Of a DNA stretch of 64,000 nt, positions 21,226 through 21,420 are shown one piece after another. Origin of the DNA: Thermodesulfobacteriota bacterium (GTDB taxonomy: Bacteria; Desulfobacterota; Desulfarculia; JACQYL01); contig CAXXLZ010000002.1 of NCBI GenBank assembly GCA_963675595.2, forward strand, positions 4,128,001 through 4,192,000, in the 5' to 3' direction. Every line of letters begins with the position of its first letter. Positions within the stretch are counted from its first letter, which is position 1. The translations under genes were made by a program, and so were the position numbers. The notes below the pieces were generated by a model. That model did no database searches. It was not told the DNA's origin and saw only the letters and a program-made list of their open reading frames with translations.

Positions 21226-21420
21226 GATAACTCCTCTCGTACCCAACCTTGCAGATGCGGCCTTAAAAGGCCGGGCAACTGTACGGGTTATCTCGAGGAA
21301 GGACATGACGGCCCAAGCTTCCAAACGGAGTCCATTTCTCCTGGGGGTCCGGCGGCCTGTCATGTCCGTGACCAACTTTGCGGGTCATGCCGTCTTCCAT
21401 TAAGTATGAAAGATGGCATG
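21226..21420 (-). ncRNA. IS110 bridge RNA (target-binding and donor-binding loops); 5' end approximate
   Basis: Stem 21301-21367 encloses guides CGGACCCCC and TTTGGAAG; second stem around 21240-21293 encloses ACAGTTGCC and TGCAAG. Confidence 0.85.

Follow-up and report, generated by a model that had tools for sequence, protein, structure and literature searches.

An IS110-group insertion sequence in a Thermodesulfobacteriota genome with a predicted left-end bridge RNA matching its own ends and its insertion sites

We analysed a stretch of 64,000 nt (positions 4,128,001 to 4,192,000 of contig CAXXLZ010000002.1, referred to as "the window") from the genome of a Thermodesulfobacteriota bacterium. 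Its subject here is an insertion sequence of the IS110 family at 20097-21433, together with the putative bridge RNA encoded in its left end. All parts of the element are on the minus strand, and the span includes one CT core dinucleotide per end and is common to seven genomic copies. The recombinase gene (20257-21225, ATG at 21225) encodes 322 amino acids, followed by a stop codon. Upstream of it lies a left end of about 206 nt, with a 5′ hairpin and two internal loops that are each enclosed by a stem, and downstream of it a right end of 158 nt (20099-20256), which contains a GC-rich hairpin at about 20146-20213. A preliminary description, made from the letters alone, had proposed that the left end encodes a bridge RNA with guides for target and donor, and that the element is intact and a candidate bridge-recombinase orthologue.

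The recombinase comprises two domains, PF01548 (DEDD_Tnp_IS110; residues 8-150, E = 2.5e-25) and PF02371 (Transposase_20; residues 191-274, E = 1.4e-18). A search against all solved structures matched only two distinct sequences, the transposases of IS621 (8wt6; residues 7-305, E = 4.1e-38, 134.9 bits) and, as the second-best solved relative, of ISCro4 (PDB 9t56; residues 6-306, E = 6.3e-38). Hiraizumi et al. (2024, PMC11208158) give D11, E60, D102, D105, and S241 as the active site of IS621. In the alignment with 8wt6, residues D11, E55, D97, D100, and S235 (followed by G236) stand opposite all five of them. The two domains, the five retained catalytic residues, and the left-end RNA with its guides are in good agreement with the proposed status of a candidate bridge-recombinase orthologue. 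Records with this exact protein exist at NCBI and ENA, with no name shown.

A search of the genome (6.79 Mb) with the element yielded 12 places, i.e. seven full-length copies with 98-100% identity, two right-end fragments of ~80 nt, and three flank-like matches of ~30 nt. The alignment of the junctions showed that in all seven full-length copies the left end begins with TGTATA, the right end finishes with ACAGTTG, and CT lies outside both. The seven copies with identical junctions therefore define the element as the 1,333 bp between the cores (21431-20099), or 1,335 bp with one core counted. The crossover point is ambiguous within CTT, because a further T follows CT at the left as well as at the right junction. 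Five of the seven copies are identical over 1,333 bp, one has a single difference, and one has 15. All differences are within the open reading frame (ORF), and the left end, the right end, and the RNA region have none. The five identical copies and the invariant RNA region suggest recent activity, and, together with the full-length ORF of the window copy, the identity of the copies upholds the description of the element as intact.

The contigs of four DNA runs were compared with the window; no piece covers all of it, and uncovered parts were not counted as evidence. In run X1, the contig of the element has a depth of 91.7 and its flanks have depths of 15.2-15.6, which fits a repeat of about six copies. 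A contig of run X4 joins 20096 to 21431, with only 26 letters on its shorter side, and a second record has seven other letters between both sides. The two were taken as related repeat units elsewhere or in another strain, and not as an empty site or a circle.

For IS110 bridge RNAs, Durrant et al. (2024, PMC11208160) describe that the first internal loop binds the target, that the second binds the donor, and that pairing of the 3′ side is with the top strand and extends over 4-7 nt. The left end of the window element (207 nt) folds with a z-score of -3.96, and none of 200 shuffled sequences folded equally well. The minimum free energy (MFE) fold starts with a 5′ stem-loop at 21386-21420, which is followed by a target-binding loop module (21301-21367) and a donor-binding loop module (21242-21287). 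The outer stem of the target module, GGACATGAC(A)GGCC / GGCCGTCATGTCC, contains a bulged A, has its arms at 21367-21354 and 21313-21301, and surrounds an internal loop. This loop contains the left target guide (LTG) CGGACCCCC at 21343-21351, which reads in the same direction as the left half of the target plus core, an inner hairpin GGAG / CUCC at 21327-21341 (helix 2), and the right target guide (RTG) UUUGGAAG at 21318-21325, the reverse complement of CT+TCCAAA. The stem and both enclosed guides are thus found on the minus strand where the preliminary description had placed them, with the right guide written there as TTTGGAAG.

The donor module consists of an outer stem CCC/GGG, an internal loop, and an inner hairpin GGCC/GGCC. 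It carries the left donor guide (LDG) ACAGUUGCC at 21274-21282, which reads like the right-end terminus plus core, and the right donor guide (RDG) CAUCUGCAAG at 21248-21257, the reverse complement of which, CTTGCAGATG, is set against CT+TGTATATT. The two motifs reported earlier for this second loop, ACAGTTGCC at 21282-21274 and TGCAAG inside CATCTGCAAG at 21257-21248, are both in place.

The guides were compared with the sequences at the ends of the element; in polarity and length, they conform to the description by Durrant et al. (2024, PMC11208160). The left target half, CGGACCC (21434-21440), is directly 5′ of the core CT at 21433-21432 and is identical to positions 1-7 of the LTG. Against CGGACCC+CT, the LTG therefore has 8/9 matches, i.e. 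all seven bases of the left target half and the first core base; at the second core position, C stands against T. On the other side, the right target half TCCTAA (20091-20096) fits the RTG at four of its positions 1-5. With the core included, the reverse complement of the RTG, CTTCCAAA, has 7/8 matches to CTTCCTAA at the window copy and 8/8 at another copy (L002). The rebuilt target CGGACCC-CT-TCCTAA and the rebuilt donor ACAGTTG-CT-TGTA of the preliminary description were both correct, as was its statement that the left target guide matches its 7-nt half exactly and that the right one has a single mismatch. The seven copies fix the boundaries of the element, and its joined ends read ACAGTTG-CT-TGTATA.

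For the donor loop, the left donor half is the right-end terminus ACAGTTG (20099-20105), with the core CT next to it at 20098-20097. The LDG has 8/9 matches to ACAGTTG+CT, again all seven terminus bases and the first core base. Read as its reverse complement, the RDG starts with CTTGCA, compared with CTTGTA at the left end, so that its first six positions fit with one G-T wobble, as had been proposed. The target fitted by the first loop is CGGACCC-CT-TCCAA, and the donor fitted by the second loop is ACAGTTG-CT-TGTA. Both right guides carry AG opposite the core of the window copy, and both left guides read CC, so that only the first core base can be paired on that side; this nuance was absent from the preliminary description. 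The base after AG is C in the target loop (21317) and G in the donor loop. They could pair with position 7 of the left donor half (G) and of the left target half (C), respectively, and C is present at the target-loop position in 60 of 65 distinct homologous RNAs. These candidate handshake bases are consistent with the handshake idea as presented by Hiraizumi et al. (2024, PMC11208158).

Relatives of the element were fetched with the recombinase protein from a collection with one genome per species. A relative is encoded in 128 stretches, and 80 loci (L013-L092) were kept, among which the best protein identity is 59%. They come mostly from metagenome-assembled Chloroflexota, Gemmatimonadota, Pseudomonadota, and Desulfomonilaceae, and each has its own target guides. 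The terminal motifs are retained, with TGTAT at the left end and ACAGTYG-CT at the right end.

A covariance model (R1) was derived solely from homologous left ends in other genomes, 39 in number, with none from the genome of the window. It covers 155 nt around the conserved donor-guide motif, and one locus was chosen per visibly distinct element that had enough upstream sequence. The structure of 22 pairs was drawn by hand, and the homologues were then re-aligned with R1. A structure obtained with RNAalifold from the raw MAFFT alignment had been dropped, as it contained only 13 pairs, because MAFFT had put some rows one column off. R1 matched the window at 21225-21378 on the minus strand over its full length, with 89.2 bits and an E-value of 1.5e-25, and no non-canonical pair was flagged. 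Of the checks that had been proposed, folding gave a positive result, as did the alignment to a covariance model, here R1. All of the 81 sources searched were matched by R1, with 83 matches of 68.7-118.4 bits. A second match in the window (36887-37034, plus strand, 10.4 bits, E = 0.055) is inside an ORF of 336 amino acids (36489-37499) and was discarded as probably due to chance.

The structure is well conserved among the 65 distinct homologous RNAs. The fraction of paired cells is 92.1%, compared with 34.9-44.3% after a shift of the partners by 1-3 columns; this control serves as a safeguard, because the alignment was fitted to the structure and the pair counts therefore lean towards it. Compensatory changes are found in 19 of the 22 pairs, and none of 500 shuffles reached the covariation score. 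For the outer helix of the target loop, all 11 pairs show compensatory changes. The fractions of paired cells are 94.2% for helix 2, and 100% and 91.5% for helices 3 and 4 of the donor loop. The AG core guide is present in 64 of the 65 distinct rows in the target loop and in all 65 in the donor loop. The two-loop layout and the CT core, both part of the original proposal, are therefore backed by the covariation of the stems and by the CT that flanks all seven copies, respectively.

Covariation between guides and DNA among the homologues, the absence of which the preliminary description had named as an argument against a bridge RNA, was present, with the guides of the homologues in the same alignment columns. 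In 60 of the 67 rows with at least 400 nt to search, the 7-mer of the LDG recurs exactly 3′ of the gene, and in all 60 it is followed by CT. The RDG covaries with the left end, i.e. GCUAG is found with left ends starting with AGTAT, and GCAAG with left ends starting with TGTAT. For the right side of the target, the five bases after the core were compared with the RTG of the same element in 44 non-redundant elements. The mean was 4.50/5 matches (29 perfect, eight with four, and seven with three), compared with 1.37/5 across 1,866 mismatched pairs. The sixth base is usually unmatched in homologues, and the RTG in this clade thus covers the core plus five bases.

For the left side of the target, a 9-mer anchored on the left-end start motif was compared with the LTG. 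At least eight of the nine positions matched the element's own guide in 16 of 48 elements, compared with 16 of 2,254 mismatched pairs; two elements have no recognisable left-end motif. The anchored test replaced a longest-common-substring test of the left guide against the upstream flank (means of 6.66 and 5.10), which was weak because single mismatches interrupt the substrings and the flanks are all C-rich.

IS621 targets a repeated extragenic palindrome-like unit, and the target of the window element is of the same type. Four of its seven copies lie inside units of a host repeat family with at least 27 members. The unit has a length of ~100 bp and consists of a hairpin (GGGGAAACC...GGTTTCCC), the sequence CGGACCC-NN-TCCNAA, and a second conserved GC-rich segment; the core dinucleotide is CT, CA, or TT. 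At the window copy, the repeat is found at 21441-21475 and 20045-20096, and further units are among the loci L093-L107. The hairpin (GGGGAAAC...GTTTCC, 21441-21465, minus strand) precedes the target here, at three further copies (L002, L003, and L007), and in 23 unoccupied units. These 23 units, which span the target, were obtained when the genome was searched by BLAST with one natural unit.

Guides and flanks were compared over the seven sites, as had also been proposed. All four units that combine the left target half CGGACCC with a CT core are occupied, compared with none of the 23 other units. Among the 23 empty units, the left half is exact in nine, the core of which is CA or TT; another five keep CT as the core and show 1-4 mismatches in the left half, and the other nine differ in both, with one ambiguous case. 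For four random insertions among 27 units, this exact outcome has a probability of 1 in 17,550. The occupancies suggest that guide match and core both decide insertion in vivo. In addition, the whole genome was searched with a pattern of the intact target with one free position, and no perfect unoccupied site was found. The same pattern gave 15 sites with one mismatch, compared with three for a reversed control pattern. Nine of the 15 are host-repeat units, and eight of these nine have their mismatch in the core (four CA, four TT).

In summary, all computable features of an IS110 bridge RNA are present, except that the left guides pair only with the first core base. From these sequence comparisons we conclude, with high confidence, that 20097-21433 of the window is an intact IS110-group insertion sequence, the left end of which encodes a canonical bridge RNA. 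Several results weigh against this conclusion. Firstly, Durrant et al. (2024, PMC11208160) describe that the core of IS621 is included in all four guide pairings, and the CC of the left guides departs from this description. Secondly, the fit of the guides to the natural sites is not perfect. The targets are CGGACCC-CT-TCCTAA at the window copy (L001), CGGACCC-CT-TCCAAA at L002, CGGACCC-CT-TCCCAA at L003 and L007, CGGACCCC-CT-TCCGAA at L004, CGATCCC-CT-TCCAAG at L005, and CGCACCCC-CT-TTCAAA at L006. Position 4 of the right half thus varies freely (T, A, C, G, A, A, and C across the seven sites), and the left guide fits imperfectly at three of the seven. At L004 and L006, the left half is longer by a single C and fits the LTG in a register shifted by one, and L005 has two left-half mismatches to the LTG. 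Thirdly, covariation on the left side is noisy, because the left flanks are all C-rich, with means of 6.25/9 for own pairs and 4.43/9 for mismatched pairs. Fourthly, a scan of 19800-21700 with Rfam 15 (E up to 10) yielded no match to 21225-21432 on the minus strand. The 10 matches listed all had E-values of at least 0.56 and were chance-level matches to microRNAs or small RNAs, and Rfam 15 may hold no bridge-RNA model; the family membership of the RNA therefore rests on our own model R1. Lastly, no circle junction was listed among the contigs of the four DNA runs.

The CC of both left guides at a CT core and the missing circle junction are also the observations expected if the element were a recently silenced relic, in which RNA and gene look intact but transposition has ceased, e.g. 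via the core mismatch of the left guides. However, five copies share one and the same 1,333-bp sequence, the ORF of the window copy has its full length, and all perfect target units are occupied. In addition, CC is the most common dinucleotide at LDG positions 8-9 of the 65 distinct RNAs (CC 21, CT only 16, other 28), and several of the homologues with CC are themselves multi-copy elements (e.g. L014-L020 and L055-L059). The CC in the left guides of the window element is thus normal for the clade, and we regard a silenced relic as improbable.

A second alternative is that the left-end structure is mainly a translational leader for the recombinase, and that its complementarity to the flanks is incidental. 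The Shine-Dalgarno motif GAGGAG (21236-21231) is part of the base of the donor-loop stem, and in the MFE fold it is paired with CCUCG at 21298-21294. RNA folding and translation may therefore compete (21231-21240 with 21294-21298). Incidental complementarity is, however, difficult to reconcile with the covariation of guides and flanks in 44-48 independent elements, with the switch of the RDG from GCAAG to GCUAG exactly when the left-end start changes from TGTAT to AGTAT, and with a site occupancy that tracks the guide. A regulatory role could coexist with guiding, but a leader as the main function is very improbable.

In elements of the IS1111 group, as described in the literature on bridge RNAs (PMC11208160), the guide RNA (seekRNA) is located in a long right end 3′ of the gene, and the left end is short. 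Membership of the window element in that branch, with a functional guide RNA in its right end, would fit the considerable length of the right end (158 nt) and its strong GC-rich hairpin (20146-20213). However, both guide loops lie with correct polarity in the 206-nt left end (the right end was checked by reading only), and the only solved chains matched are IS621 and ISCro4, so that this alternative has next to no likelihood.

The bridge-RNA element of the window resembles IS621 in many respects. Both have a two-domain recombinase with DEDD and Ser residues, a left-end RNA that combines a 5′ hairpin with a target-binding and a donor-binding loop, a 3′ side antisense to the core plus right half, and the core CT. 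A right donor guide that pairs discontinuously, and candidate handshake bases beside the AG core guides, also agree with IS621 as far as it is described in the cited work. In contrast to IS621, the window protein is only a distant relative, the target is CGGACCC-CT-TCCAA, the right end has 158 nt, the two left guides read CC instead of CU at the core, and the RTG effectively covers the core plus five nt. The multi-copy IS110 elements ISPpu9 and ISPpu10 of Pseudomonas putida are reported to insert in a conserved repetitive extragenic sequence (PMC12288879; bioRxiv 10.64898/2026.03.19.712850). The four of seven copies of the window element in an extragenic-type repeat are similar to this reported preference; host and target repeat differ. 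The element is thus a canonical further case of the published bridge-recombinase family with its own target specificity, and not a new kind of system. The founding paper (Durrant et al. 2024, PMC11208160) already contained computational predictions of thousands of bridge-RNA orthologues, so that a further member of the known kind is unsurprising, and it may already be catalogued among these predictions.

The ends of the element contain promoter-like motifs. A -10-like hexamer, TATATT, can be read from the sequence at 21424-21429 (left-end positions 3-8), and a perfect -35 hexamer, TTGACA, is present at 20112-20117 (right-end positions -19 to -14). When the ends are joined through one CT, the spacing between the two is 17 nt, and the combination TTGACA-17-TATATT would be predicted to act as a promoter. 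Among 39 distinct homologous right-end tails, 26 have TTGACA with at least 5/6 matches at the -35 position. In the integrated copy, AAAAAG is found 17 nt upstream of TATATT, in the place of the -35 motif, and weak chromosomal expression is therefore expected. Weak expression from integrated IS621 has been reported by Hiraizumi et al. (2026).

By analogy with IS621, the following life cycle can be proposed. The element would be excised as a circle, and the joining of its ends would create the TTGACA-17-TATATT promoter, from which the bridge RNA and the recombinase gene would be transcribed. A recombinase tetramer would hold the RNA, the target loop of which would pair with CGGACCC-CT-TCCAA and the donor loop with ACAGTTG-CT-TGTA. 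Ser235 and the DEDD site would then cut beside CT, the strands would be exchanged, and the element would be inserted with CT on both sides.

Several additional features were observed at the right end and in its surroundings. The hairpin at 20146-20213 (minus strand) lies between the stop codon and the -35 hexamer and gave a spurious Rfam microRNA match (E = 2.4); it may terminate transcription of the recombinase gene or belong to the structure of the right end. The right-end TTGACA and the flanking TAAACT, 18 nt apart, form an outward promoter-like site (20088-20117, minus strand, 10/12), which is antisense to the 3′ end of a tyrosyl-tRNA synthetase-like ORF (18541-19899, plus strand). A hairpin 3′ of this ORF (GCGGGGAAAAACTTTCTCGAAAGTTTTTCCCCGC, 19905-19950) is similar to the target-repeat stem and received a terminator-like score. 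The two right-end fragments of the genome, L008 (G000:C2:1729086-1729169) and L009 (G000:C2:734818-734896), are solo remnants of ~65-78 nt, 88-92% identical to the right end, and look like old insertions that have lost the left end and the gene. Each lies between a hairpin of a second type (GGGGAGGACTTTCGGGAAAGTCCTCCCC), directly 5′ of it, and CT+CCCAAAGCACG. The repeat family with this hairpin also includes the right flank of the full copy L006 and the unoccupied site L107.

Two families of homologues (L020, ~1240-1310, and L036, ~280-350) each include one copy that sits exactly in the left target guide of its neighbour. As the left guide reads like the target, an element can target itself and form tandem arrays. 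At a further locus (L053), two RNA matches are arranged in tandem, and the right guide of the second one is disrupted.

It is tempting to read the host repeat family and the element as partners in an arms race that is legible from one genome, with escape variants in the core and a tuned CC in the left guides; we consider this reading possible but rather doubtful. The empty units that combine the exact left target half with CA or TT at the core could represent escape variants that were selected, or were retained, because their core cannot be cut or exchanged. The CC core guides of the left arms could represent a mismatch tuned to favour insertion at the expense of excision.

The known mechanism of bridge-RNA systems is unchanged by the element. 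It adds to the family a well-documented natural bridge-recombinase orthologue, for which the ends, the RNA, a target of 14 nt, and seven natural insertion sites are defined. Screens for genome editing draw on orthologues of this kind as raw material. The occupancy of the host repeats represents a free data set on specificity in vivo. If the arms-race reading were true, it would also provide a natural measure of tolerance, i.e. free variation at position 4 of the right target half, a shift of the left guide by 1 nt, and zero tolerance in the core.

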